A stretch of DNA of 64,000 nt from Candidatus Latescibacterota bacterium (GTDB lineage Bacteria > Latescibacterota > UBA2968). The notes under the pieces were generated by a model. The model was not told the DNA's origin. It saw only the letters and a list, made by a program, of their open reading frames with translations, and ran no database searches. A program made the translations under genes and the position numbers. The stretch is taken from assembly GCA_965198115.1 (NCBI GenBank), contig OZ240241.1, positions 5,376,001 through 5,440,000 of the forward strand. The letters run 5' to 3'. Below, one piece after another: positions 13,313-30,138 of this stretch. Position 1 is the stretch's first letter; every line of letters starts with the position of its first letter.

Positions 13313-14350
13313 ATGATCGATCTTGCGACATCGTGTGAGATGCCCGACCGACCGCGCCCCATTCTGGAGATCGGTGCGGGTGGGATCGTCCGGGACGCTC
13401 ATCTGCCAGCGTATCGGTTGGCCGGATTCGAGCATTTCGGCCTCTACGATCCCGACATTGTCAAAGCGAGGGCCCTCGCAGCGCAGTTCAACGTGCCTCG
13501 CGTCTTCGAATCGATGGGTGAGGCGCTATCGGCCGCACCTGACAACGTCGTCTTCGACGTCGCGGTTCCCGGTGGTGTTGTTCGTGACGTCGTCCCCCTG
13601 CTTCCAGACAATGCGGCCGTCCTTATCCAGAAGCCTCTCGGGCTCAACCTCGCCGACGCCCGCCACATCTGCCAACTCTGTTGCGACAAAGGGTTGACCG
13701 CTGCGGTCAACTTCCAGCTGCGCTACGCCCCTCCCATCATCGCCCTCCGCGATCTGGTCGACCGAGGCCTGCTCGGCAAGCTTCACGACATCCAGCTGCA
13801 GGTCAACCTCTGGACACCGTGGGAGCTCTGGGACTTCCTGAAGACAGAGGAACGTGTGATCCGGTCGTTCATTGGTGATCCAACAGGGGTTTATGCGCGG
13901 GTGTACCGCAGCCCTCGACAGCCTGATTTGGCCGATGTCAAATCGACGACGATTCTGGAATACGGCGACGCTCTGCGCGTCACCGTCAGCGCAAACCACT
14001 GTCACGAAGGCGGACTGACCAACCAGGAATCCTACTTACGCTTCGAAGGCGACAAAGGTATCGCCAAAGTGACCCTTGGCCTCTGCATGGACTACCCCCG
14101 GGGCCAGCCCGACGTCTTCGAGTATTGTCTGTTCGACCGGGATGACCGCGCATGGCAAACGGTTGACATCGACGGCACCTGGATGCCTCACGCCTTCATC
14201 GGCACGATGGCAAGTGTCATGCGCAAGGTCGAGGACCTCTCACGCCCCCTGCCAACCCACGTCGACGACGCCTTGCGGACAATGGCCGTCGTCGAAGCGG
14301 CGTATGCGTTGAGCGCCGGTGGGGCTACCCCAATCGACTACGGAAACTGA
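13313..14350 (+). pseudogene. Gfo/Idh/MocA oxidoreductase with probable in-frame deletion of the catalytic segment
   Basis: GAGGIV, IQKPLG, VNFQLR present; FLKTEERV runs directly into IRSF where homologs normally carry the H-x-x-H-x-x-D segment. Confidence 0.65.
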
Positions 14351-14361
14351 CATTGCTCAGG

Positions 14362-14531
14362 CACCGTTCGTCCCTTCGACTCCGCTCAGGGCGGGCTCTT
14401 CGATACAACGGGTCACAATCGATCGTATAGCTACATCCTGAACGGTTCTACGAGGCCGTTTACTCAGGATGAACGGTGGGTGATTCGCCAAGCTTATCCT
14501 TCGTGTCTTCGCGTCTTTGCGCCTTCGTGTC
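14362..14531. repeat. REP remnant with inserted CCCTTCGACTCCGCTCAGGGCGGGC unit plus degenerate octamer repeat
   Basis: Shares boxes with 13150-13283. Confidence 0.65.
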
Positions 14532-14555
14532 TAAAGTCCCCGATGGTGGTAAGAA

Positions 14556-16038
14556 ATGCCCGACGCACCTGAACATCCCAACCTGGTTTTCATCTTACCC
14601 GACCGCCAACGGCGCGACACGCTCGCCTGCTACGGCAACAACTGGATCCAGGTCCCGCATCTCAATGGGCTGGCCGAAGAGAGCTTCGTCTTCGACAACT
14701 GCTACGTAACCCAGGCCGTTTGCTGTCCCGCCCGGGCTTCCATCATGAGTGGTCTCTACCCCGTCGACGCGGGAATGCCCGTCAACCTCCGTATCATGCC
14801 CGATTCCGTCCAAACCATCGGCGAAATATTGTCGGACACTTACCACACCGGCTACATCGGCAAATGGCATCTGGGTGACGAGCTCATCGCGCAACACGGC
14901 TTCGAAGAGTGGATCCCGTGTTTCGAACATTGGTGGCGCCAGTACAGGGATCAATCGCAGAAAACCCTTTTCTCACCGTATCACCACTGGCTTATCGAGA
15001 ACGGATTCGAGCCCGACGCGCCGCATCCCGGTGGGAAGATGTTCTCCCCCGAATTCCGTGCCGATCTCCCTGACGGGTATCATATGACGACGTTTCTCGG
15101 CGATCGGGCCGCCGACTTCATCACCCGCAACGCGGAACGTCCGTTCGTCCTCTACGTCAGCTCGAAGGAACCGCACCCACCCTTCACGAGCTACCACAAC
15201 GACCTTTACGATCCCGCGACGCTCCCGGTTGACGACACATTCCTGACTTATCCCGAGGGACACTCGTTGTTCAACCGGATCCGTGCGGAGTTCTGGATGC
15301 AGGCCACGCACGGAGGTGACTTCGACCTGACCACGGAATCGGGCGCACGACAGATGCGATCGAACTACTTCGGCTGCGTGTCACTCGTCGACGAAATGGT
15401 GGGCCGTGTCCTCGGCGCCATCGACGATGCTGGCCTCCGCGACAACACGATCGTCGTCTTCACGAGCGACCACGGGGAGATGGTCGGTACGCACGGCCAC
15501 GTCGAGATGCGATCGCCCTATGAAGAATCCTCCCGTGTGCCGCTTCTCGTGCGGGCCCCGTGGTTGAGTCAGGACCAACAGCGCGTCGACGGCAACTTCC
15601 AGCCAGATCGACTTCGTGCCGACACTTCTCGACCTGCTAGGGGAATCCGTGCCGGATCACTTGCCGGGTTCCAGCCGCGCCGATGTTTTACGTGGCACCG
15701 GCACTCTGAGCGACAACGACATCTTCATCCAGCACAATGGCATCGGTGACCGCGACCTGACATCGGCCTCGACCTCTCACACGATGCCGCCCGAACGCGT
15801 CCAACAGCTGAACCTGCTGAAGACCGCACCGTGGCGAAGCGTCGTCACCTCCGATCGCTGGAAGCTGACCCTTTGCGCCGCTGATCAAGGCGAACTGTTC
15901 GACCTCGACACCGATCCCTCTGAAACGACCAACCTGTTCGACTTACCCGAGCATCGGGATCGCGTACGCTGGATGGCGGCGCGGCTGAGGCTCTGGCAAC
16001 AGGAAGCCGGTGACACCGCTCCCTTGCCGGGGGTTTGA
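14556..16038 (+). pseudogene. Formylglycine-dependent sulfatase, +1 frameshift near 15600
   Basis: CCPAR, GKWHL, SDHG motifs; GNF/SQIDFVPTLL junction has one extra C; C-terminal ELFDLDTDP.E. Confidence 0.85.
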
Positions 16039-16105
16039 CAAGGACTTAGGGTTTGCCACGAAATAAGTGCTGCACTTTTCAAGGTAATGATCTTACGCTC
16101 GGAGT

Positions 16106-17315
16106 GTGGACGTCGAAACTCTCCGAACGAAGTATGAAGCCTTGGCTCCGGTGCTGACGGAACGCACGCGTCGTCTGTGGGCCGCCACGGAAGCCGAAGC
16201 GTTGGGTCACGGTGGGATCGCGATTGTGGCTCTGGCGACAGGAATGTCCAGAGAGCGGATCTTTCGTGGCATTCAGGAGTTGAGGTCGGACGAACCTTTG
16301 GACCCGGCTCGCATCCGGCGTCCAGGCGGCGGTCGTAAGCGGAAGGCCGACACGGACCCGACGCTGTGGCAGGACCTGAATGATCTGGTCGAGCCAACGA
16401 CTGCGGGGTCGCCTGACGACAATCCTCTGAGATGGACATCGAAGAGCACTCGCAAACTGGCCGCCGAGTTGCAAGCGATGGGGCATTCGGTGAGCCCCAG
16501 GATCGTTGCCAATCTCCTGCACGAACACGATTACACGCTGCAGGCGAATCGGAAGACAAGGGAGGGATCTGCACACCCGGATCGGGACGCTCAGTTCGTT
16601 TACCTCGATGATCGGATTAGCCAGCAGCAGCAGCAGGGCCTTCCCGTTATCTCGGTGGACACCAAGAAGAAAGAGTTGATCGGCGACTTCAAGAATCCTG
16701 GCCGAGAATGGCGACCCAAGGGAGACCCGGAGCGTGTGAAGGTACACGATTTCATAGTGCCTGCTCAGGGCAAGGCGATCCCTTATGGAGTGTATGATCT
16801 GAGCCGTGATGAAGGCTGGGTAAGTGTCGGTATCGATCACGACACGGCCAGCTTCGCCGTGAATGCGATCCGAAGTTGGTGGAAGAACATGGGACGGCCC
16901 GCCTACGGCACTTCGACGCATCTGCTAATCACGGCGGACGCAGGCGGCAGCAACGGCGCCAAGACGCGGCTGTGGAAGTGGGAGCTGCAGCGCTTTGCGA
17001 ATCGCACTGGCCTGACGATCACCGTATGCCACTACCCTCCTGGCACTAGTAAGTGGAACAAGATCGAACATCGCCTGTTCTCCTTCATCGCTATGAACTG
17101 GGCGAGGCAAGCCCCTGGTCAGCCTGGCTGCAACCGTGAATCTCATTGCCGGAACGACCACTCAAGCCGGTCTCCGAGTACGCTCCGAGATCGACAAGCG
17201 ACCCTACCCTAACGGGGTCAAGGTGACCGATGAACAGATGACCCAAATCGATCTCACTCCGCACGATTTCCACGGCGACTGGAACTACACGATCCGGCCA
17301 ATGGCTCAACATTGA
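16106..17315 (+). pseudogene. ISAzo13 transposase, +1 frameshift near 17101
   Basis: Matches copy 1 except for an extra G in aactgggcgagg. Confidence 0.85.
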
Positions 17316-17333
17316 GATCGACCGTTTATTTAT

Positions 17334-18753
17334 GGCTATATTCGGATCTCTCAACGAGATGAAGTGGGTGAAGGTGCCGTGGTTCCTGGCATGGGGGCGC
17401 GGTTAGAGTGTGCGGAACCTCTTCGGAATCTGCTCAGGGATGTTTATGTCTCCGACGGTAAGGAAGATCATATCGTTGAATGCGTCGAGTGTGCGGAATC
17501 CGCTGGCTCGGTTCTTGACGATTTGGACGATTCGGTTGAGGCCTTCGGCGATGGCGTTGGTAAGACGCGTGTTCACGAATGCGAGGACGCCGAAGAAGTG
17601 CTGTCGCAGGGTCCTGACGAACTTTCGCAGGGGTTCAAGTCGACTTCTGAGTGCGGACGTCGTCCAGCATTTCAGGAAGCGTTCGGCAGCCCAGGGCGCT
17701 TTGTATTCCCAGAACTGCTCGAACTCGTCCTTGAGTCTCCAGGCTCTATAGATTCGGTAGTTCGCCTTCTCCAGTGCTTTGAGTGTCCGAGTATCCCCTC
17801 TGGAGCGTGTCGCTGAGTGCCGGTAGAGGAGCCATCGGAGGCCCTTCATGGCTTTGCGCTCATCCGGGGCAGCTTTACGCCACTGGTCCTTACGGACCTC
17901 GTCAACGGCGGCATTGAGAGCCTTGACGATGTGAAAGCGATCGAGGACCAGCTTGGCATTCGGACAGTGTTCCTGGATGGCTCCGATGTAAGCTTCGCTC
18001 ATGTCGCAGCAGGCCCACTCGATCTTGGATCTCCGGTAGGGACTGAGAGCCTCTGTGAAGAACCGATCGATCGTTTTACGCGCCCTGCCGCGGCCAACCC
18101 ACACCACGCAGGAGCGGTCCAGATCGTAAACGAGCGTGGCGTACCTGTGACGCTTGGCGTAGGAGATCTCGTCGATCCCGATGGTTTTGAGCCCTCGGAT
18201 ACGATGACCTTCACGAAGCCGCGTGATGGATCGGTGAAGGAGATCCGACAGCGTCGAGGCAGAGATGCGCAGCAACTCGGACGCCGCCTTCTGCGTCATG
18301 GTCTGGCAGTAGCGCAGCATGGCATACTCGAAGCGATACGTCACCCGAGAGAACCGCTCCGCCCACGGAATCTCCTCGACCACACGACCGTGGGTAGGAC
18401 ACCGAATCTCCCGAGGATGGTAGAGAAGCCAGACCCTCCACCCGCACACCGGAATGTCACGCCACCGACGCGGATGGGGCATTGTGCGGACGATTTTACC
18501 TCGACGGCCGCACTCCGGACAACAACAACCATTCTTATGGGGCTTTACGGCGATGACGAAACAGCTTCTCCCCTCAAACCACCAGCTGACAACACGGAAC
18601 CCCTTGAATCTCAGCAGTTTCGATAGTAATCTGCTCCCGGTCATAGGTCGCACCCCCTTCGCTTTGATTGTCCTACACACACAACCAAGCGTAGGGAACG
18701 ATCTATGACCTTGTCATTCTATAGTTTCACCGTTGAGAAACCCGGATAGAGCC
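17334..18753 (-). mobile_element. ISL3 element, copy B (1420 bp)
   Basis: IRs as copy A; DR TTATTTAT. Confidence 0.95.
17403..18680 (-). CDS. ISL3-family transposase
   Basis: Near-identical to copy A. Confidence 0.95.
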   Translation of the reverse strand: MCRTIKAKGVRPMTGSRLLSKLLRFKGFRVVSWWFEGRSCFVIAVKPHKNGCCCPECGRRGKIVRTMPHPRRWRDIPVCGWRVWLLYHPREIRCPTHGRVVEEIPWAERFSRVTYRFEYAMLRYCQTMTQKAASELLRISASTLSDLLHRSITRLREGHRIRGLKTIGIDEISYAKRHRYATLVYDLDRSCVVWVGRGRARKTIDRFFTEALSPYRRSKIEWACCDMSEAYIGAIQEHCPNAKLVLDRFHIVKALNAAVDEVRKDQWRKAAPDERKAMKGLRWLLYRHSATRSRGDTRTLKALEKANYRIYRAWRLKDEFEQFWEYKAPWAAERFLKCWTTSALRSRLEPLRKFVRTLRQHFFGVLAFVNTRLTNAIAEGLNRIVQIVKNRASGFRTLDAFNDMIFLTVGDINIPEQIPKRFRTL

Positions 18754-18772
18754 TTATTTATTCGCGAACCCT

Positions 18773-19942
18773 TAGTGTCACGTCCCAGGAATAACTAGAA
18801 AAATATTCGATTCTGTCGTATGGTTCCTCAAGCACTCATTCTTGGGAGGAACCGATGGCTAGAGGTCGTCCGTTACAGCCACTGAACATCAGTGATGAGG
18901 TCCACGATCAACTCGAGTCATTGTCTCGTTCGCGTAGCATGTCTCACGCTTTGGTGCGTCGCGCGAAGATCGTCTTGATGAGCGATTGCGGTCTGACCAA
19001 TCAGGAGATCGCGGAACGAGTCGGGTTGTCCGGAGCGTCTGTCGGCAAGTGGCGTCGTCGCTTCTGCGAGCAAGGCTTGATGGGACTGTATGACGAATTG
19101 CGTCCTGGAGGGCCACGGTCGGTCAGCGACGAAGAGATCTCCTCCCTCATCTACAAGACGCTCAAGAAGCAACCGAAGGGTGCCACCCACTGGACCTGTC
19201 GTTCGATGGCCGACGAGACGGGGCTCTCCAAGTCCTCGGTTCAACGTGTATGGAAAGCTTTTGGCCTGCAACCGCATCGACAGAAGCACTTCAAACTGTC
19301 GAACGATCCCTTCTTCGTCGAGAAAGTCAGGGATATCGTCGGTCTATACCTGAACCCACCGGACAACGCGATGGTGCTCTGTGTAGACGAGAAGAGCCAG
19401 ATTCAAGCACTCGAACGGACACAACCGATTCTTCCTTTGGGTCTCGGATACGTCGAGGGCGTCACTCACAGCTATATCCGGAACGGCACGACCACCCTCT
19501 TTGCAGCGCTCAACATCGCATCCGGCAAAGTTCTGACTCAGTGCAAGCCCAGACACCGCAACAAAGAGTTCCTTCAGTTCCTCAAGCACATCGACAAGAA
19601 CGTCCCAAAGGATCTCGACATCCATCTGGTCGTCGATAATTACGGCACGCACAAGCACCCGAACGTCAAGCGTTGGCTCGCCTCACGGAAACGATATCAC
19701 GTGCACTACACACCAACATATGCCTCCTGGCTGAACCAGGTAGAGATCTGGTTCGGTATCATCACCCAAAGAGCCATTCGACGAGGCACCTTCAGAAGCG
19801 TCAAGGACCTGATCGCCTGCATCAAGAAATTCACTGATCACTACAACGAGAATTCTACACCCTTCGTCTGGACCGCCACGGCAGATTCAATCCTCGAGAA
19901 AGTCCATAAACTTTTGAAGCTTATACGCGGGACGTGACATTA
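18773..19942 (+). mobile_element. IS630-family element
   Basis: IRs TAGTGTCACGTCCC / GGGACGTGACATTA with TA-type ends; exact tips uncertain by a few bp. Confidence 0.88.
18855..19937 (+). CDS. IS630-family transposase
   Basis: N-terminal HTH; CVDEKSQIQA, VDNYGTH, SWLNQVE DDE motifs. Confidence 0.93.
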   Translation: MARGRPLQPLNISDEVHDQLESLSRSRSMSHALVRRAKIVLMSDCGLTNQEIAERVGLSGASVGKWRRRFCEQGLMGLYDELRPGGPRSVSDEEISSLIYKTLKKQPKGATHWTCRSMADETGLSKSSVQRVWKAFGLQPHRQKHFKLSNDPFFVEKVRDIVGLYLNPPDNAMVLCVDEKSQIQALERTQPILPLGLGYVEGVTHSYIRNGTTTLFAALNIASGKVLTQCKPRHRNKEFLQFLKHIDKNVPKDLDIHLVVDNYGTHKHPNVKRWLASRKRYHVHYTPTYASWLNQVEIWFGIITQRAIRRGTFRSVKDLIACIKKFTDHYNENSTPFVWTATADSILEKVHKLLKLIRGT

Positions 19943-19957
19943 GTAGGGCATCAAGTT

Positions 19958-19981: not shown

Positions 19982-20271
19982 GGATGCCAGCGCTGCAATT
20001 CGTCCCGAAATCAGCGTCGTTTGCCAATCTCTCCTTTCCTAATTCAATAAGTCTCCGTTAGTTGGGGCACGTTCGCGTGGGTTCCCAATCTGCGCCGATT
20101 GCTCAGCGCGGGATCGAAGTCGTACAATAGAGCGGCGCACTTTTCCCGTCCTCGCGAGTACCCGGGGCTGAAGCCCCGGGCTAGGAGGACGCAGCCCTTT
20201 CAGGGCTGAATCTCCAACCCCTCCGTATTCTCAGTGTTCTCCGTGGCTGTCTTTGACTTACAGGAGTGTCA

Positions 20272-21608
20272 TTGAAACCCAACATCATCCTGATCAACTG
20301 CGACGACCTCGGCTACGGTGACCTCGGATGCTACGGCTCCGAAGTCAACAAGACGCCCGCTCTCGACCGGATGGCCGCCTAGGGTACCCGGTTCACCGAT
20401 TTCTACATGGCCTCCCCCGTCTGCTCGCCCTCGCGAGGCGCGATGCTCACGGGTTGCTATCCCTCGCGTATCGGCTTTGGCGAGTTCGACGGTCGCTGGG
20501 TGCTGTTTCCGGGTCAGGGAATCGGACTCAACCCGAGCGAAACCACGATCGCCCGTCTCCTCAAGAACGTGGGATACGCGATGAAAATCGTCGGCAAGTG
20601 GCACTGCGGCGATCAACAGGATCATCTTCCGACACGACACGGCTTCGACAGCTACTACGGGATTCCCTACAGCAATGACATGGGAATTCAAGGCGGGAAC
20701 GATAGGGGCTTCCCACCACTGCCGCTCCTCCGAGACGAGACCGTCATCCAAGCCCAGCCCGACCAGCGCGGCATCACGGAACGCTACGTCGAAGAATCCG
20801 TCCGTTTTTGTGCGGAACAACGCGGGCAGCGGGACTCCGTTCTTCCTTCTATCTCGCTCACATGCACGTTCATCTTCCGCACTATCCGCCGGAACGCTTC
20901 CTCCGCGAATCGGAAAACGGTCCTTACGGCGGAGCGGTCGCTGCGATCGATTGGGCAACGGATGTTCTCCTGGACGAGTTGAAGTCACTCGGTCTGGATG
21001 AGGATACGCTCGTGATCTTCACGAGTGACAATGGATCTCGCATGCAGGGACAGGGCGGGAGCAACGGTGAGTTGAGAGGGATCAAAGGGACCACGTGGGA
21101 AGGCGGCGTGCGTGTTCCCATGATCGCGCGCTGGCTTGGGAAAGTACCCGCTGGTCGCGTGTGCAGCGAGTTGACGCTCTCGATGGATCTGTGCCCGACC
21201 CTGGCCGCTGTCGGCGGCAGCGAGATGCCCGAAGACCGGATCATAGACGGAAAGGACATCCAGCCGATCCTATATGGTGAGGACGGCGCGAAGTCCGAAC
21301 ACGACGCGTTCTTCTACTACAAGAAAAACGTTCTCGAAGCCGTTCGAAGCGGGAAGTGGAAGCTTCACATACGGAGGGAGGAACCCCGCAAAACGGGGAA
21401 CCTGACGGTCGACACGGGCAAGGAAAGAGCCATCGAAGAGCTGAGGGAGCTCTACGACCTGGAGTCGGACATCGGTGACAGCGCGGTCGGAATCGAAGGT
21501 GAGAACATCAGACCCGCCGGCCGGGTCGACAACCCCGACACGCTCACCCGCTACGATCCTGAACATCCGTATATGATCGCGATGTACGATCTCGAAGAAC
21601 GTGGATGA
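20272..21608 (+). pseudogene. Arylsulfatase-family pseudogene
   Basis: TTG after CAGGAG; [39 protein letters not shown]; in-frame TAG at 20380, frameshifts near 20805 and 20847, probable C-terminal deletion. Confidence 0.88.
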
Positions 21609-23667
21609 GCACTTTCGTGCGTCAGTGAACCAAACAACCTTGCACAATCACAAGCGAGTGTCATCCCGGTAGTGTTTTGAAGAGCCTGTCCCGAGCGCAG
21701 TCGAGGGAGGATCCATTCTGTCTTTTCGCGTAAGTCAAAATGGGACCCCCCTTCGACAGGCTCAGGACAGGCGGCTAAGAAGCGTACCGGGGTGACATTT
21801 CCTTTCGTGTTTCGTTTATCGGTCAGTTTCTCTTGGTGTCTTGGAGTTTTGGTACCAGTTGGATGTTCAAACCCATCGACAGAGAGAAAGGCTGCCGAGA
21901 GTTTACGTGGATTCACCCGGTAATCCAAGACCATCTCACCCCCCGGATGTAGATGAATCCGCTCGACACAGGCGTGGATGATGGCCTTGCGCATTCGAAA
22001 CTGCTTAAGCTGATCCTCTGAGTAGCTTCTATTCTTTACGAGAAAAGATGGAACCGTATCGTCGACATCGACTAGCGAGAGGATTCCATCGCCCGCAAAC
22101 GTCAGCGCGTGGGCGAGACCATCCTTAAGTGCGTCGGCCCCCTCGCGCGCATCCAGCTTGGCAGTTATCTGATGAATCTCTTGATCCAGGTGCACGCCTT
22201 CTGCTTGGATCCTGTCCACTTGCTTTTGATACCGGCTTCCCGTCAGCGTTCCAGATACGTACGCAAAATCCGCTCGCTCAACATGTCCTGCAAGACCGTC
22301 CCTCTTCTTTTTCAGACTTTCGAGTCGCTGCGCCATCGCTTCTCCGCCTTCTGAATCGAACTGTTCCTGCCAGATCGCCAGGATTTTCTCGGGCTTCATC
22401 AGCATCCGATGCACTTGTGCGGACACTCGCTGATTCACGTCCGATATTTTTTGGCTGGGCGCGCTGCACCTCTTTCCGAACTGATCGAATCTGGCGTTGC
22501 AGTAGAGCCGGCCATCGATCAGGTTCGACCGTTGGCCATACATCCCCCGTCCACCCCCTCGGTATCCTCGGTCCTCTTCGTGACAGACTCCGCAACGAAG
22601 AAGCTTGCCAACAGATACTCGGTCGCGTCGGTGCGGGTGCCTTGCGACTTCTTGCCGTCCTTGGCCGCAGGCTGTGCCTTTTGCCAGGTGGCGTCGTCGA
22701 TGATCCCGGGCACCGAGCAGGAGACCCATTCGGATCTGGGCTTCAGCCGTTGTTTTTTCCGACCCGTCAGCGGGTCCTGCTCATACGCGTATTTGCTGTA
22801 GTTGAAGACTCCCTTGTAGGTCTCCGAAGATAGCACGCCCCGCACGTGCTGCGGTCGCCACGGCACACCTTTATTGGTCAGGGTGCCTTGCGCATCGAGA
22901 GTCAGGGCGATCCGGTAGGTCGCCACACCTCGCAGACACATCTCAAACATACTGCGGACCACCTTGGCCTTCTCATCATCAACGACGAGCCGCGAACGCG
23001 AGCCCTGCTTGCCGCGAGCCGAGTCGCCTGTTAGCTCCAGCCGATAGCCGAAAGGGGTGCAACCGCCCGGCCAGTGACCATGTTCGGCTGCCGCAAGTTT
23101 GCCCTGGATCATCCGTCGGTGGCGCGTGTCAGAATCAGCTTCGACGATCGATAGCCTAATGGACGTCTCCAGCTTCTCCGGATCGAGCCAGCCCTCATTT
23201 ATGGTGTAAATCAGCGCGTCCAATTCCAAAAGGACGGCCGTAAACTCGCCTCTCTGACGGGCCTTCTCGGCACTACCGGCTTTGAGCCTTATCAGACGAT
23301 CAAGGAACGTCGACCGCAGCACCGACAACTTGCCGGCAGTTCGTAACTCCTTCGCCGTCTCCAGCAGAACACGCCCGGCTGGACGTTCCCAAAGCGGATA
23401 CCGTTCTGCCGATACCCCAAGATCGAGCAAGATGGTATGGGAGTCGTCCACGAACACCGTCTCGGCTGACTGCTGTTTGGCAGGCGTCCGCTTCCCGCCG
23501 TCGTAGACGACCAGGGAATCGAACCGGTGCAGGGGCCACTGGTTCTGTTCGGCGTCTTCGTTCAGCGCACGGATGTTGCCAAGATGCGTCTCGGCTGCTC
23601 GCTGCTCGGCGGACGAAGAACGGTGGTAGGATAGGATGACTGCATTCTGTGGCAAGGTAGTCTGCAT
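21551..23667 (-). pseudogene. Large serine recombinase (integrase) with one frameshift near 22608
   Basis: ATG 23667 after GGAGG; YHRSS catalytic motif, DLGVS..ERP, LDRLIR; recombinase domain PFGY..WRPQHV..YKG..PGII; zinc ribbon CGVC...C...C in the shifted frame; coiled coil. Confidence 0.85.
21659..21797. repeat. CGTC-type palindromic repeat with two nested ~25-bp units
   Basis: TGTCATCCCGGTA / TACCGGGGTGACA termini; inserted gagcctgtcccgagcgcagtcgaggg and cccttcgacaggctcaggacaggc. Confidence 0.65.
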
Positions 23668-24121
23668 TCGGGCCTCCATCGGTATCAGGGGGTTATCACT
23701 TTCGGCTGTAGCCAATTTGACTGATTCTTCGACGTCTGTCTCGTGATTTCCTGGTGCATCCACAGGATTCCGGGCACAAACAGGTTCCTGTGCTGAATGG
23801 GGGCACTGTTGCCGAGCAGGTGTGGCTTACGACCACGGTAACGGCTATTAGTCCCCCGATCTTGACCCCGTCCGCCAACGAATGCATTACCTATTGATCG
23901 AGCGACATTCGCCATTATGAAGTGGCCTTGGCCTTCCTCACAGGGAGCGGTGTTCAGACGGTCCTCGACCTCTTCTTCAGTCAGAACGTGACAGCTTTCC
24001 AGAGCGTGTAGGGGATGCAACACCGTGCGGGCTGTCGTAAGCGACCGTTCACATTTGTGAATCTTCTTGGGTTCAGGTGCCAAAACGGCGCTTAGGCTGT
24101 GGGTATTCGGCTCAGGTGTCA

Positions 24122-24858
24122 CTACGTGGCTCCGATGTCGCTCCGGACCAGGACTCGGCGGACTCTCCCCCTCGAACGTGTGCCATGCTTTGGGCGTGAA
24201 ACCAGTCTCGTCCTCACATCCTTCAGTGGCTTCGAGCGCGCCCGAATAACTCTCCTCGTCCTGGCGACTGGTGGTCTCGCGTGAAGGTCGGCTGATGAAC
24301 GCTCATTGGTGCCGCGCTGCCGACGGAGAGCGCCGTACGACTCAATCCGCCGAATCCCTCGCAGTTCCCCCCAGACTTTCACTCGCAACCGTGGTCTCAT
24401 CCTGTCGAACGAGGTGACGTACGATAGGCGCTCCGCCAGTTTTTTCGGCCCGCCGATGCTCCGAACGTCAACGATGCTGCTGTTGGTCGTGAGTTTCGTC
24501 CATAGTTCGCAAAGTTCTCGTTGATCTATCCACGGGCCATAGTGCAAAACGTGCACGTGGATGTTTCCAGACTTAGGGCCTGCTTGAAGCACAGCAAACG
24601 CAGCAGCGTGGGCCCCTCGCAATCTTCGACGCCAGAGTAACGACATCCCCCTCCTACCAATCTCCGCTGCATGTCGGAACTTCCCTTCTGTGCGTACGGT
24701 CAGCGTGATGTGTCTCCACGTATGATTCGACTCGATGTTGATGACGTCACGCGCTTGGTCGAGGCAAGCGATGATGTCGGTGACCTTCAGTCCGCGGCGA
24801 TTCACAAGCTTCTTCGCCAATCGGAGATGGTGAACCACCTCATGAACCCGAATGAGCT
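24122..24858 (-). pseudogene. HUH-superfamily rolling-circle replication initiator (Rep), 5'-truncated by IS256-family insertion
   Basis: Motif 1 HITLTV, motif 2 HVHVL, W..Q..L...W...IVDVR, motif 3-like LSYVT; frame stays open upstream into the IS end at 24859. Confidence 0.72.
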
Positions 24859-25467
24859 GGCAATGTCTTTTTCGCTGTTGAAATTGGACAGCGGCATGTG
24901 ATGGTTTCAGGCGGCTGCAGCGCGTCCTTCAACGTTCCCGTCGAGGGCGGCATCGTGCGTCTGAAGGGCGACCACAAGCTTGGTCATCTGGCGGTAGCCC
25001 TTGAGTCGCCGGAAGCCCCGTTCGGCTTCCAAGGCACCGGCGGCGCTCCAGCGCAGGATCATGCGGCCGCTCTTCCATCGCTTGACGCGGCCTGAGAGTT
25101 GGCGCAACTGTCCGATCAGGTTTTCGATGACGTTCGTGCTCGAAAGGGTGCGCTCCAGGGAAGATCCACCGAGGCCCAGGCGTTTGTACCGTCAGCAGAT
25201 CCTCGAGCCCTTCGCGGAGCGAGGCGGCCGCGCCGGGGTGCTGCTCGTCCAGGCTCCTCGCCAGATTCGTGAGCATACGTTCAGCCAGTTCGGGATCTTC
25301 GGCTCTGAACGCGTCTTTCAGAGCGCACTTCACCGACCCTCGCTTGCCCTCCGGCAGCGCGTCCAACACGTTCCGCTTCTTGTGCTCCTGGCATCGCTGG
25401 ATGAGCGCGCGTCTTCCGAGGACTGACCGCACAGCCCTGTAAAGGGCCTTGCCGCCGTCGATCACAA
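24859..25467 (-). mobile_element. Remnant of a second IS256-family element (3' part of transposase plus right end)
   Basis: IDGGKAL, QRCQEHKKRN, TNVIEN motifs with a frameshift near 25180; right end TTTCAACAGCGAAAAAGACATTGCC. Confidence 0.8.
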
Positions 25468-26677
25468 TGTCGTCCGAATGATCTGCTGTGCGAGGCTTGC
25501 CGTTCTGCCTTACTACTCGAAGATCTACTGCACCGTCCTCCGGAGCACTTATCTCTGAAGGTTGTTACTGAATTCGGGGAGCCCCTTTGCTACGGCGCCG
25601 TCTCTAGCCTGAATCATGCATGAATTTGAGTTTAGGTTGTTTTGGAGTGATGTGATCACGCACAGGATTTGTTCTCGGCTTCTTCGGATGTCCAAGGTCC
25701 CGTAAGCGGTCTCTACGAGTCGCAAGAGTCACGATTTTCGTCCGGAACAGGTGTTGTTTTGCGACGTGTACATAGCTGTCCCCGGTATAGATCGGCGTTG
25801 TTACTGCGTGTTCGTTTCGAGCCTGGTGATGATTGACACCAAGACGTTTTTGAGTGGATACGATGTTGGAAAATGGAATCGGATTCTTCGTGCGCTTTCA
25901 ATGACTCTCGCGCCGATTTTGAGGAAACGGTTCTGTATCGTGTTGACCTGAGGTTTGGTCCACGCGGTGCCCTTGAGTCCCTGTGATCGGAGTGCGTGAA
26001 GCAAGGCGTATGCAGCACTGTGTAGAAAGAGTCGGAACTGGTTGGCTTCAAACTTGTGGCACGATGTTCGATCGGAGTGAAGGAATGTTTTGTGGTCCTT
26101 GATGAAGCCTTCCGTGCGTCCCCTTGCGCAGTAGATACGATCATAGATAAAGCCGTCTCGATTACTCTGTAAATTGGTCACGCGGTATCTTGGATTTGCT
26201 TCGCCGTTTGTGACTTCAGCCTTGTGAATGATCCGGCGAGGCTGCCGGTAGGTGCCAGCCTGATATGAGAAGGATGAGAACAAGCGAATCGTCTCCTTAT
26301 GCTCGCTCAGACGTAGCGCTTGGTCCATCAGGTTTTGTCCAGCCGCTTTGAGCTTGGAGTTGGCGCCCTGGCCCAGAACGTAGTAGATACCGTTGTCTTC
26401 GCAGAAATCGTGCATCTCTGGTGAGCTGAACTTTGAGTCTGCGCGAACGATGATCTCCACGTTTGGCCAAGATCCGCGTAGGTGTTCCACCAAGCGCTTG
26501 AGAATAGAAACGACCTGTTTACCGTTCGTCGGATGCCCGGGTCTCAAGATCGTCGTAATGAGCTTGCCGCTTTGGCCTTCATAGATATGTAGCGGCATAT
26601 AGCAGTGTTCATTGTAATACGCGTTGAAGAGTGAAAATTGTTGCGCACCGTGCGTTGGGTCATCCGTGTCGTCGATA

Positions 26678-28051
26678 GAGTTCAGGTCAATAGGTGTGTA
26701 AAAGAAATCAGGCGGCCATCTTCCCGGCTTCGACCTGCGGTCCGGTTGAGTGTTTCTGATCGTAGACTTGTTGTAGCAAGTGTGGCGCGGTGAGTTTCCT
26801 GAATCGGCTCTCTGCGACCTTGAGCGTACGCCAGATGAGAGTCGTGGCGTTCCTGACTTTCTTGAATCGCCTGGCGGCGTTTGTGCGAAGCCGAACGGAA
26901 GCAAAGGGGCTCTCGACGACGTTCGTGGTTCTCAGGTGTTTCCAGTGTTCCTTCGGGAAGTCGTAGAACGTGACCATCCGATCCCAGTCTCTTTCGAGCG
27001 TCTCCACGGCGGCAGGGAACTGTGAGCGATACCGTGCGGCAAAGCGTTTCCGGAGCTTCTCGGCCTCCTTTTTCGTGCCGGCATAGGGGATCTGGACGAG
27101 CAGTGCGCGGGCTTCAGCCTGTGCACGCTTGGCGACCTTGTCGAGCACGTTGAGGATCTTGTGGTTCCAGCACCGTTGTTGCCGGCTCTCTGGCCAGACC
27201 TGATCAACGGCCGCCCAGATGCCCATATTCCCGTCCGCGGCGATCAGGACAGGATGTTCGAGCCCGCGATCCCGGAGATCCCGGAGCACCGTGAGCCAGG
27301 ATTCTGTAGACTCTCGATAACCGGGTTCTATCGCCAGGATCTCCTTGCTGCCGTCGCTCATCGCGCCGATCACGACCAGCAGACACGCCTTCTCGCGCTC
27401 GAGCCCGGCTTTGACGTAGATGCCATCAGCCCAGGCGTAGACCAGTTCGCGATTATCCAGACGCCTTTCTTTCCAGTCCTGGAAGTCGACCTCCCACTTC
27501 CCTCGAAGACGAGCGATCGAGGTCGGCGAAAGCGGCGCGCCATCACCGAGCAGCGCACGCAAAGACAACTCGAAGTCGCCCTGGGAGAGACCGTGGAGAT
27601 AAAGGTCGGGAAGCAGATCTCCAATGGCCCTGGTTCTCCGGGCGAACAGGGGGAGGATGCGGCTTTCAAACCGCTCTTCCAGACCACGAACCCGGGGACG
27701 CCGGACCTTGATCGTTCCGCAGCTCGTCGAGAGACGCCGGGGCTTGCCGTAGCCGTTCCTGTAGCCCCTGGAGCTATCGACCTCGGCTCGGCGCTCATAC
27801 CACGACCGGCCCAAGAACGCGGTCGCCTCCTCCTCCAGAATGGACTGGAACCGGCCCTGGATCTCTTCACGGATCCAATCGTCAACCGTCTCCCACGTCG
27901 GCATGGACTTCAATGGGGCTCTATGCGTATGTTCCTTCACGGCGATCCTCCTTCCCAACCGGGCCTCTCACCCGGTTTTGTGTGAATCAACTATCTCACG
28001 GGAAGGGTAGGGTCGCCCTTTCTCTTTTTCCACACCTTTTGATTATAGCTC
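26678..28051 (-). mobile_element. IS256-family element, copy 2 (1374 bp)
   Basis: Same IRs as copy 1; 8-bp DR CGTCGATA. Confidence 0.93.
26708..27958 (-). CDS. IS256-family transposase
   Basis: One residue differs from copy 1. Confidence 0.93.
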   Translation of the reverse strand: MGRRIAVKEHTHRAPLKSMPTWETVDDWIREEIQGRFQSILEEEATAFLGRSWYERRAEVDSSRGYRNGYGKPRRLSTSCGTIKVRRPRVRGLEERFESRILPLFARRTRAIGDLLPDLYLHGLSQGDFELSLRALLGDGAPLSPTSIARLRGKWEVDFQDWKERRLDNRELVYAWADGIYVKAGLEREKACLLVVIGAMSDGSKEILAIEPGYRESTESWLTVLRDLRDRGLEHPVLIAADGNMGIWAAVDQVWPESRQQRCWNHKILNVLDKVAKRAQAEARALLVQIPYAGTKKEAEKLRKRFAARYRSQFPAAVETLERDWDRMVTFYDFPKEHWKHLRTTNVVESPFASVRLRTNAARRFKKVRNATTLIWRTLKVAESRFRKLTAPHLLQQVYDQKHSTGPQVEAGKMAA

Positions 28052-28606
28052 CGTCGATATCGAGAATGATGCTTGGGGGTGCCTGGTCATACGATGCGAT
28101 GAACCCGTCTACAAAAGCCCGTGCGAGCCGATACAAATCCGAGCGTCGCACATCATTCTCAAGTCGTGTCATCGTTGATTGGCTCCCGAGATCAGGACCG
28201 GAAAGAGGAAGCCGATCGCAGGCAGCCTTGACGCCCGGATCGTGGCGCAAATCATCACAATCGACGGCATCTTCATAGCCGCAAGCGATCTGAAAAACAC
28301 GCCGCTTCACAAGATCCAAAAGCGTGTGATCGATATAGCTTGGGTGACGACGATCTCGCAAAGCATCTACCATTCTGGCGATCAATCCCATCTGAGACTC
28401 AAGGGCGCGAAGCAACAGAACTCCACCGTCACTCCTGACGGCGCCACCGGCAAAATCAGCCTCAACTACCTTGCCCGAAATGCTTGCGAATGGTAACCGG
28501 ATCTGACTAGGTTCTATCACGGTAGTTCCTTCCAAGTGTTGTTTTGATGTGTCAGCCCTAATGTAGGGAAAAACAAACACTTGTACAAGGAGACTACCTT
28601 TTTTAT

Positions 28607-30026
28607 GGCTCTATCCGGGTTTCTCAACGGTGAAACTATAGAATGACAAGGTCATAGATCGTTCCCTACGCTTGGTTGTGTGTGTAGGACAATCAAAGCG
28701 AAGGGGGTGCGACCTATGACCGGGAGCAGATTACTATCGAAACTGCTGAGATTCAAGGGGTTCCGTGTTGTCAGCTGGTGGTTTGAGGGGAGAAGCTGTT
28801 TCGTCATCGCCGTAAAGCCACATAAGAATGGTTGTTGTTGTCCGGAGTGCGGCCGTCGAGGTAAAATCGTCCGCACAATGCCCCATCCGCGTCGGTGGCG
28901 TGACATTCCGGTGTGCGGGTGGAGGGTCTGGCTTCTCTACCATCCTCGGGAGATTCGGTGTCCTACCCACGGTCGTGTGGTCGAGGAGATTCCGTGGGCG
29001 GAGCGGTTCTCTCGGGTGACGTATCGCTTCGAGTATGCCATGCTGCGCTACTGCCAGACCATGACGCAGAAGGCGGCGTCCGAGTTACTGCGCATCTCTG
29101 CCTCGACGCTGTCGGATCTCCTTCACCGATCCATCACGCGGCTTCGTGAAGGTCATCGTATCCGAGGGCTCAAAACCATCGGGATCGACGAGATCTCCTA
29201 CGCCAAGCGTCACAGGTACGCCACGCTCGTTTACGATCTGGACCGCTCCTGCGTGGTGTGGGTTGGCCGCGGCAGGGCGCGTAAAACGATCGATCGGTTC
29301 TTCACAGAGGCTCTCAGTCCCTACCAGAGATCCAAGATCGAGTGGGCCTGCTGCGACATGAGCGAAGCTTACATCGGAGCCATCCAGGAACACTGTCCGA
29401 ATGCCAAGCTGGTCCTCGATCGCTTTCACATCGTCAAGGCTCTCAATGCCGCCGTTGACGAGGTCCGTAAGGACCAGTGGCGTAAAGCTGCCCCGGATGA
29501 GCGCAAAGCCATGAAGGGCCTCCGATGGCTCCTCTACCGGCACTCAGCGACACGCTCCAGAGGGGATACTCGGACACTCAAAGCACTGGAGAAGGCGAAC
29601 TACCGAATCTATAGAGCCTGGAGACTCAAGGACGAGTTCGAGCAGTTCTGGGAATACAAAGCGCCCTGGGCTGCCGAACGCTTCCTGAAATGCTGGACGA
29701 CGTCCGCACTCAGAAGTCGACTTGAACCCCTGCGAAAGTTCGTCAGGACCCTGCGACAGCACTTCTTCGGCGTCCTCGCATTCGTGAACACGCGTCTTAC
29801 CAACGCCATCGCCGAAGGCCTCAACCGAATCGTCCAAATCGTCAAGAACCGAGCCAGCGGATTCCGCACACTCGACGCATTCAACGATATGATCTTCCTT
29901 ACCGTCGGAGACATAAACATCCCTGAGCAGATTCCGAAGAGGTTCCGCACACTCTAACCGCGCCCCCATGCCAGGAACCACGGCACCTTCACCCACTTCA
30001 TCTCGTTGAGAGATCCGGATATAGCC
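28607..30026 (+). mobile_element. ISL3 element, copy C (1420 bp), inserted at the left IR of IS1380
   Basis: DR TTTTTTAT at 28599-28606 and 30027-30034. Confidence 0.95.
28680..29957 (+). CDS. ISL3-family transposase
   Basis: Near-identical to other copies; likely ATG at 28716. Confidence 0.95.
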   Translation: MCRTIKAKGVRPMTGSRLLSKLLRFKGFRVVSWWFEGRSCFVIAVKPHKNGCCCPECGRRGKIVRTMPHPRRWRDIPVCGWRVWLLYHPREIRCPTHGRVVEEIPWAERFSRVTYRFEYAMLRYCQTMTQKAASELLRISASTLSDLLHRSITRLREGHRIRGLKTIGIDEISYAKRHRYATLVYDLDRSCVVWVGRGRARKTIDRFFTEALSPYQRSKIEWACCDMSEAYIGAIQEHCPNAKLVLDRFHIVKALNAAVDEVRKDQWRKAAPDERKAMKGLRWLLYRHSATRSRGDTRTLKALEKANYRIYRAWRLKDEFEQFWEYKAPWAAERFLKCWTTSALRSRLEPLRKFVRTLRQHFFGVLAFVNTRLTNAIAEGLNRIVQIVKNRASGFRTLDAFNDMIFLTVGDINIPEQIPKRFRTL

Positions 30027-30138
30027 TTTTTTATGCATAATTCAGGCTATCTGGCTCAAGCTGGGAAACTAGCAACCACTCAATGCCTTGCCCCTCGAAG
30101 CACTAGCTTTCAGCCCCCCTCGGTTAGCAGCTGTCACC

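Follow-up and report, generated by a model that had tools for sequence, protein, structure and literature searches.

A decayed mobile-element end in a Latescibacterota genome: a divergent large serine recombinase, likely aimed at a dispersed host repeat, beside a probably unrelated rolling-circle Rep fragment

The 64,000-nucleotide stretch of DNA analysed here (the window) comes from Candidatus Latescibacterota bacterium (assembly GCA_965198115.1, contig OZ240241.1, positions 5,376,001 to 5,440,000), whose single-contig 8.43-Mb genome is rich in insertion sequences (IS). As originally predicted, two co-oriented genes lie on the minus strand, one encoding a large serine recombinase (LSR; 21840..23667) and the other an HUH rolling-circle initiator (Rep; 24296..24858). 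They are about 630 bases apart, have a similar GC content (0.57-0.58) and are separated by a 628-bp leader (23668..24295, minus strand). The Rep gene ends upstream at the remnant of an IS256-family element (24859..25465, minus strand; 607 of about 1430 bases). The end at 24859 is exact, as ten other copies of this IS start at 24858-24861, and it is therefore the IS that cut the Rep gene. Beyond it stands a pile of IS1380-type, IS256 and ISL3 elements (25462..30038), in which no far att end was found. The predicted lack of capsid, morphogenesis and conjugation genes was borne out, as only IS genes, and no transfer or virion genes, are present between 24859 and 30038. Dense IS piles are seen both there and at 16043-19944 of the window (ISAzo13, ISL3, IS630); IS ends have more than 250 BLAST matches in the genome, which is around 3 Mb larger than that of its congener. 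The neighbouring sulfatase genes (20271-21608 and 14556-16038) are both frameshifted or interrupted by a stop. Scans of the locus for promoters and terminators gave results at chance level.

The architecture proposed for the LSR, with a resolvase domain carrying an insertion, a recombinase domain, a four-cysteine zinc ribbon and a coiled coil, agrees with an alignment to nine canonical LSRs. Residues Y14, R16, S18, R95, R124 and R127 are invariant in this alignment, the zinc-ribbon cysteines C359, C362, C390 and C401 are nearly so, and an insertion of roughly 20-30 residues lies within the catalytic domain. The recombinase domain matches PF07508 (E 1e-18), and the Atlas search gave 0.97 to LSR clusters. 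No match to Pfam Resolvase was obtained for the catalytic domain, which is too divergent for that profile. The structure model (pLDDT 34.6) is unusable as a whole, a helical hairpin at 442-522 being its sole confident part. The gene starts at 23667, its reading frame changes near 22607, where a base is missing, and the frame then extends into the flank, with its stop at 21551 at this locus. The frame is thus not intact in the window, but it is intact in the cluster of P0002, a 99% identical relative (cluster of 21, 15 of them among those listed).

The nearest canonical LSRs are only 26-32% identical over less than 55% of the length. No close relatives were found in the genome, metagenome or viral contigs searched, in a DNA search of 131 other genomes of the class, or in a protein search of 167 genomes of the phylum, where five genomes gave generic LSRs at 26-33% identity. 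DUF4368 was not matched in P0002, P0159, P0160 or P0172. The LSR belongs to a real and divergent family with intact natural members. Two subtypes of it can be recognised, with C-terminal halves 85% identical and N-terminal halves 53% identical, and one protein (P0161) is an A-subtype LSR that ends in the last codons of the C subtype; together these point to recombination between the subtypes. A separate canonical LSR with an open frame of 519 codons is also present in this genome (G000:C1:3318499-3318963), about 48 kb from one of the LSR copies described below (copy B).

The original prediction placed an indel at 22608 that needed confirmation, and the missing base, at 22607, is real. In X1, the likely source run, no base is inserted at 22607 (depth 31.6), whereas X3, X4 and X6 have one extra base behind this position. 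Two other copies in the genome (B and D) have the same break, copy B being identical to the LSR copy of the window at 1968 of 1969 positions with no gap, and copies C and E keep the base. No slippery heptamer was seen by eye at the frameshift. A chimeric join or a sequencing indel might be suspected in a single-contig metagenome assembly with frameshifted sulfatase genes nearby. Against this, one X1 contig covers 23773-24887 without a difference, another crosses 22607 without an insertion, and the same join between Rep and leader is seen independently in X3. An assembly artefact is accordingly an explanation to which we give almost no credence.

The Rep-like frame opens on the minus strand at the IS end (24858), closes with a stop at 24122, and is complete for the catalytic core of a Rep_1-like, single-tyrosine HUH protein but lacks its 5' part. 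The predicted motifs HITLTV, HVHVL and YVT are present, and H100, H102 and Y146 are invariant across 37 aligned sequences. A full-library search gave 400 matches at E<=0.001 with 26-46% identity, mostly to proteins of 250-490 residues that have 80-200 more N-terminal residues than the window Rep. The fragment itself has no profile match at 0.01, REP_ORF2-G2P being reached at 0.042 and Rep_1 (PF01446) not being reached. The structure model (pLDDT 84) resembles viral replication initiators. A fold search of the PDB gave nothing at E<=0.001, with weak rows that included HUH domains, and weak sequence matches were found to the Reps of two 2.3-kb Acinetobacter plasmids. Phage records held no match, and a word-indexed search for relatives returned only the Rep itself. 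Taken together, the protein is a genuine rolling-circle initiator. A full-length Rep gene is not present at the locus, a double-strand origin was not identified there, and the missing 5' part was absent elsewhere in the genome when queried with 28 homologues.

A fixed 3' end with variable 5' ends, as described below, would also be expected if the HUH protein moved one-ended units in the manner of an IS91-like rolling-circle transposon, with the LSR as a passenger, and 17 of the 37 aligned Rep proteins match Zn_Tnp_IS91. The known targets of IS91, which inserts before CAAG or GAAC, would also be in keeping with this. The same 37 proteins, however, match Rep_1 in 32 cases, REP_ORF2-G2P in 27 and Y2_Tnp in none; the best IS91 equivalog (NF033538) reaches 19.5 bits where the cut-off is 125; the protein has a single tyrosine and relatives on small circles; and what flanks the LSR end is a long repeat instead of a tetranucleotide. 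An IS91-like origin is therefore largely refuted and we regard it as very improbable. The Rep is not an IS91 or IS200 transposase or a relaxase, any of which would have spoken against the original prediction.

Of the 41 loci at which relatives of the Rep were examined, several are small circles that encode Zot or ParA, and five distinct ones have a tyrosine integrase. At L053, L054, L057, L058 and L061 the relatives are more distant and belong to integrated elements, where a tyrosine integrase follows them immediately, and L023, L035, L036 and L045 represent a single inovirus-like circle of 4.9 kb. In the tree the Rep of the window belongs to a subclade of low support (0.67-0.77) in which tails are short and a C-terminal CxxC is missing. 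A CxxC tail is present in 102 of 120 homologues, but given this position in the tree its absence does not show a truncation, and the Rep need not be cut at its 3' end. The join to the leader at 24295 comes nine codons after the Rep core has ended. Just past it, the residues HARPP resemble the RGPP ending of the Rep family. The last 58 codons of the frame (24295-24122) are DNA that is present without Rep in other strains.

At the other end of the locus, the LSR frame closes on a sequence that recurs across the genome. The LSR 3' end is present seven times, compared with once for Rep: in the window (copy A) and at 3268805 (B), 1340793 (C), 7157893 (D), 2883507 (E), 7513630 (F) and 135529 (G). 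These ends belong to the two subtypes, and each extends differently into the element, for 75 to about 2500 bases. A constant arm (21853..21882, minus strand), within the 3' end of the LSR frame, is kept in all seven copies, and the flank changes directly past it. In the window the flank is a copy, in tandem here, of a dispersed host repeat (21832..21852, minus strand; consensus CCAAGACNCCAAG). This 13-mer is found with at most one mismatch at four of the seven LSR ends, and at copy D after a shift of one base; at copies E and F an IS has left only 8 bases of the flank. All five uncut ends thus run into the short dispersed repeat. In the genome as a whole there are 88 repeat sites, as against about 46 expected by chance over 16.9 million strand positions, and the natural left arms met most often end in GAACCA. 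A genome of the same genus (G001) has seven exact repeat sites with the natural left arm, the control giving none, and no LSR match, and four other genomes examined have no exact match to the pattern.

Other strains extend this picture. Among the 19 cluster proteins listed, from two clusters, seven further LSR tails were found; one protein stops before the tail and one is cut, and where the tail is present it always starts TKT[PR]R[HY][QE]E. This genome and the other strains together give 12 different flanks, at least ten of them for the A subtype, counted here by flank, unlike the count by target gene cluster in PMC10083194. The constant arm and the changing flank suggest that the att site lies within the last codons of the LSR, that the repeat is attB and that the repeat copy at 21832..21852 is an attB-derived arm, as read from the one end of the element that is available. 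The crossover would then lie at 21853-21852 at the earliest, and the insertions would have been made by the LSR itself. An attL was not recovered by an inverted-arm search or from clustered downstream words. No empty site was found either, since a different gene adjoins the sulfatase in G001 and orthologues of the far flank were absent from five genomes, and the contigs showed no circle. The seven loci covering the genome copies contain no tRNA gene, and Rfam gave no match.

The repeat might instead not be a target at all, one or two original insertions having been multiplied by duplication or by homologous recombination between repeats. That copies A, B and D have the frameshift in common, that A and B share 16 bases past the presumed crossover, and that attL was not found would all fit such a history. 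It is harder to reconcile with two subtypes and 12 flanks in which the change always falls directly past the same arm, or with a repeat that differs between near-identical LSR copies, and we consider it quite improbable. For the three copies sharing the frameshift, movement in trans and duplication would both be suitable explanations.

The leader and its ORF have no match to a protein family, an Rfam family or the Atlas, and the leader is contiguous with the LSR in X3, X4 and X6. At the junction (24295..24296) the window continues into Rep, but the contigs of X4 and X6, which carry intact LSRs, depart from it at 24295 into an identical loose end of 114 bases. This end is made up exactly of 64+16+34 bases from upstream of copy C, with a joint across the copy C ISL3, and has a depth of 14.3 in X4. 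It follows that an upstream region is common to both LSR subtypes and that Rep is unattached there; the region contains a strong hairpin. The copy C joint was present in all four runs examined, from four studies (X4, X5, X11 and X15). Its link to the LSR is seen in X4 and would apply by extension in X5, X11 and X15. Sequence in X4 beyond the part shared with copy C is absent from this genome. Upstream of copy C (L002) we also observed part of the LSR N-terminus duplicated in tandem (G000:C1:1342630-1342910; about 73% identical over 121 bases) and, at 13450-15100 of the same locus, a basic 190-residue ORF with two 58% paralogues, a possible RHH protein and a holin-like ORF. These phage-like ORFs are covered in four other runs, and their tie to the element is possible but unproven.

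Only X1 and X3 showed LSR and leader joined to Rep, and both have the same IS256 cut; in X3 the Rep-IS256 join is at depth 2 and the LSR at depth 6. The zero depth over Rep in the X4 and X6 contigs is a hole in the contigs and proves nothing. Of the 18 main runs that contain sequence of the locus, 15 (seven studies) have 0.65-0.72 of the words. The share expected for LSR and leader with the differences of X4 is 0.73, to which Rep would add up to 0.19, so the 15 runs indirectly fit an element with LSR and leader and without Rep. Two RNA runs labelled sponge metagenome contain 0.12 and 0.06 of the words.

The other copies in the genome have different neighbours on their 5' side: a cut DUF4386 gene at copy B (profile positions 7-163 of 210), a membrane ORF at copy D, an IS21-like fragment at copy F, and other ORFs or DNA. 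A further 5' fusion occurs in another strain (P0160). Since other genome copies are fused to such an assortment of genes, Rep is likely to be one more partner of this kind. The rest of the DUF4386 gene is absent past the LSR at copy B, which points to deletion after insertion, and the Rep join may have been produced in the same way. We therefore favour, as the probable reading, an eroded mobile-element end in which an LSR likely integrating at a dispersed repeat has been fused, at 24295 of its leader, to a Rep fragment that is likely unrelated. In this scheme the att site would be part of the final codons of the LSR gene, and its recombination with the repeat TGAACCA-CCAAGACNCCAAG would change the tail of the protein at every insertion. 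The far side of the element would afterwards be stripped by deletions together with neighbouring DNA, leaving the remnant joined to whatever gene stands upstream.

Several observations run against a fusion. The join lies just behind the Rep core, Rep is co-oriented and would be an unlikely random partner, and the Rep family is paired with LSRs elsewhere. One of the 167 other genomes of the phylum (G142) has two elements that carry this Rep family with a canonical LSR and a repressor. Both appear intact, at about 9 kb (L098, 6203-15192) and 11 kb (L099, 5780-16800), and consist of a canonical LSR, an HTH repressor, a Rep_1-like Rep and a large secreted-protein cargo. L099 has in addition an ImmA-like peptidase and a SpoVG-like gene and abuts tRNA-Ala(GGC), and an att-like repeat recurs at 15175 of L098. 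These elements confirm that homologues of Rep and LSR do co-occur.

The G142 pairs, together with the co-orientation, the similar GC, the position of the join directly behind the Rep core and its occurrence in two samples, would suit a Rep that truly serves the replication of this element, or of a larger version of it, as an LSR-integrated rolling-circle replicon later inactivated by IS256, with Rep either native beside the leader or placed there by an internal deletion. The LSRs of G142, on the other hand, are only 27-29% identical to the window LSR over short stretches and are divergently oriented, and the G142 Rep is distant in the tree. PF07508 was found in none of 72 neighbour ORFs from the 41 Rep loci, a set with many short contigs from which duplicates and most short ORFs were excluded. 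X4 and X6 enter other DNA at 24295, common to the second LSR subtype, and the word shares of the 15 runs fit the absence of Rep. The single Rep copy does not discriminate here, because upstream parts have been lost in nearly all genome copies. We judge that Rep is possibly a native module, though this is unlikely. A fuller version, of which we are more doubtful still, is a repeat-homing integrative replicon: the LSR would land on the intergenic repeat and rewrite its own C-terminus, an autonomous form would use Rep to amplify its excised circle, and forms lacking Rep would travel as satellites.

Of the minimal Rep-LSR element originally proposed, it holds that both genes are real and that their families co-occur, but the evidence at the locus favours two fused elements, and the two-gene system is likely the fusion of two decayed ones. 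Its notable part is the divergent LSR, for which homing to a dispersed repeat of 13-20 bases is likely. If this is correct, serine integrases can exploit repeats of the host as safe landing places at many sites, as some insertion sequences do, and the LSR, with its short and defined target, would lend itself to direct testing.

The pairing itself is not the new system that had been proposed, as serine recombinases combined with rolling-circle initiators are already described for actinomycete elements and for phiRSM. Of 144 actinomycete integrative and conjugative elements (AICEs), 19 use a serine recombinase, including Faln2929 and mycobacterial AICEs with a rolling-circle Rep (PMC3218068). 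The window resembles them in having an LSR and an HUH rolling-circle initiator, although the linkage of the two is doubtful here, and differs in having no FtsK/Tra gene and a Rep_1-like Rep in place of RepSA. The filamentous phages phiRSM1/3 are ssDNA rolling-circle replicons integrated by a serine recombinase (PMC4471427), and some relatives of the window Rep are likewise on Zot-bearing circles. Their enzyme is small, resolvase-type and acts at tRNA-Ser, and they carry virion genes, of which the window has none. In streptococcal integrative and mobilisable elements, RCR-related relaxases are found together with integrases of the tyrosine or serine type (PMC5357655, PMC5704250).

Multi-targeting LSRs, including a TndX/TnpX-like clade, have been described (PMC10083194), as has Tn4451 (PMC5704250). 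Multi-site LSRs mostly carry DUF4368, and LSRs aiming at sequences present several times in the host are allowed for (PMC10083194). The window LSR is like these enzymes in that one 90% cluster is found at many sites, beyond the threshold of more than three used there, and in multiple copies per genome; unlike them, it lacks DUF4368 and its likely target is a family of intergenic repeats, not genes or AT-rich sites. The searches, which covered open-access papers, brought up no LSR that targets intergenic repeats of this dispersed kind, although the supplements of PMC10083194 may hold such targets.

The Rep shares its three motifs and one tyrosine with Rep_1 (PF01446) initiators of the pC194/pUB110 type, in line with the Rep_1 matches of its relatives, and differs from them in that the window fragment, its N-terminus lost, stays below a Rep_1 match. 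Insertion into dispersed intergenic repeats, of the REP/BIME kind, is a known habit of IS1397 and IS621, which use DDE or DEDD transposases. The window LSR resembles IS1397 and IS621 in its likely dispersed-repeat target, and is unlike them in that the enzyme is a large serine recombinase and not a DDE or DEDD transposase.
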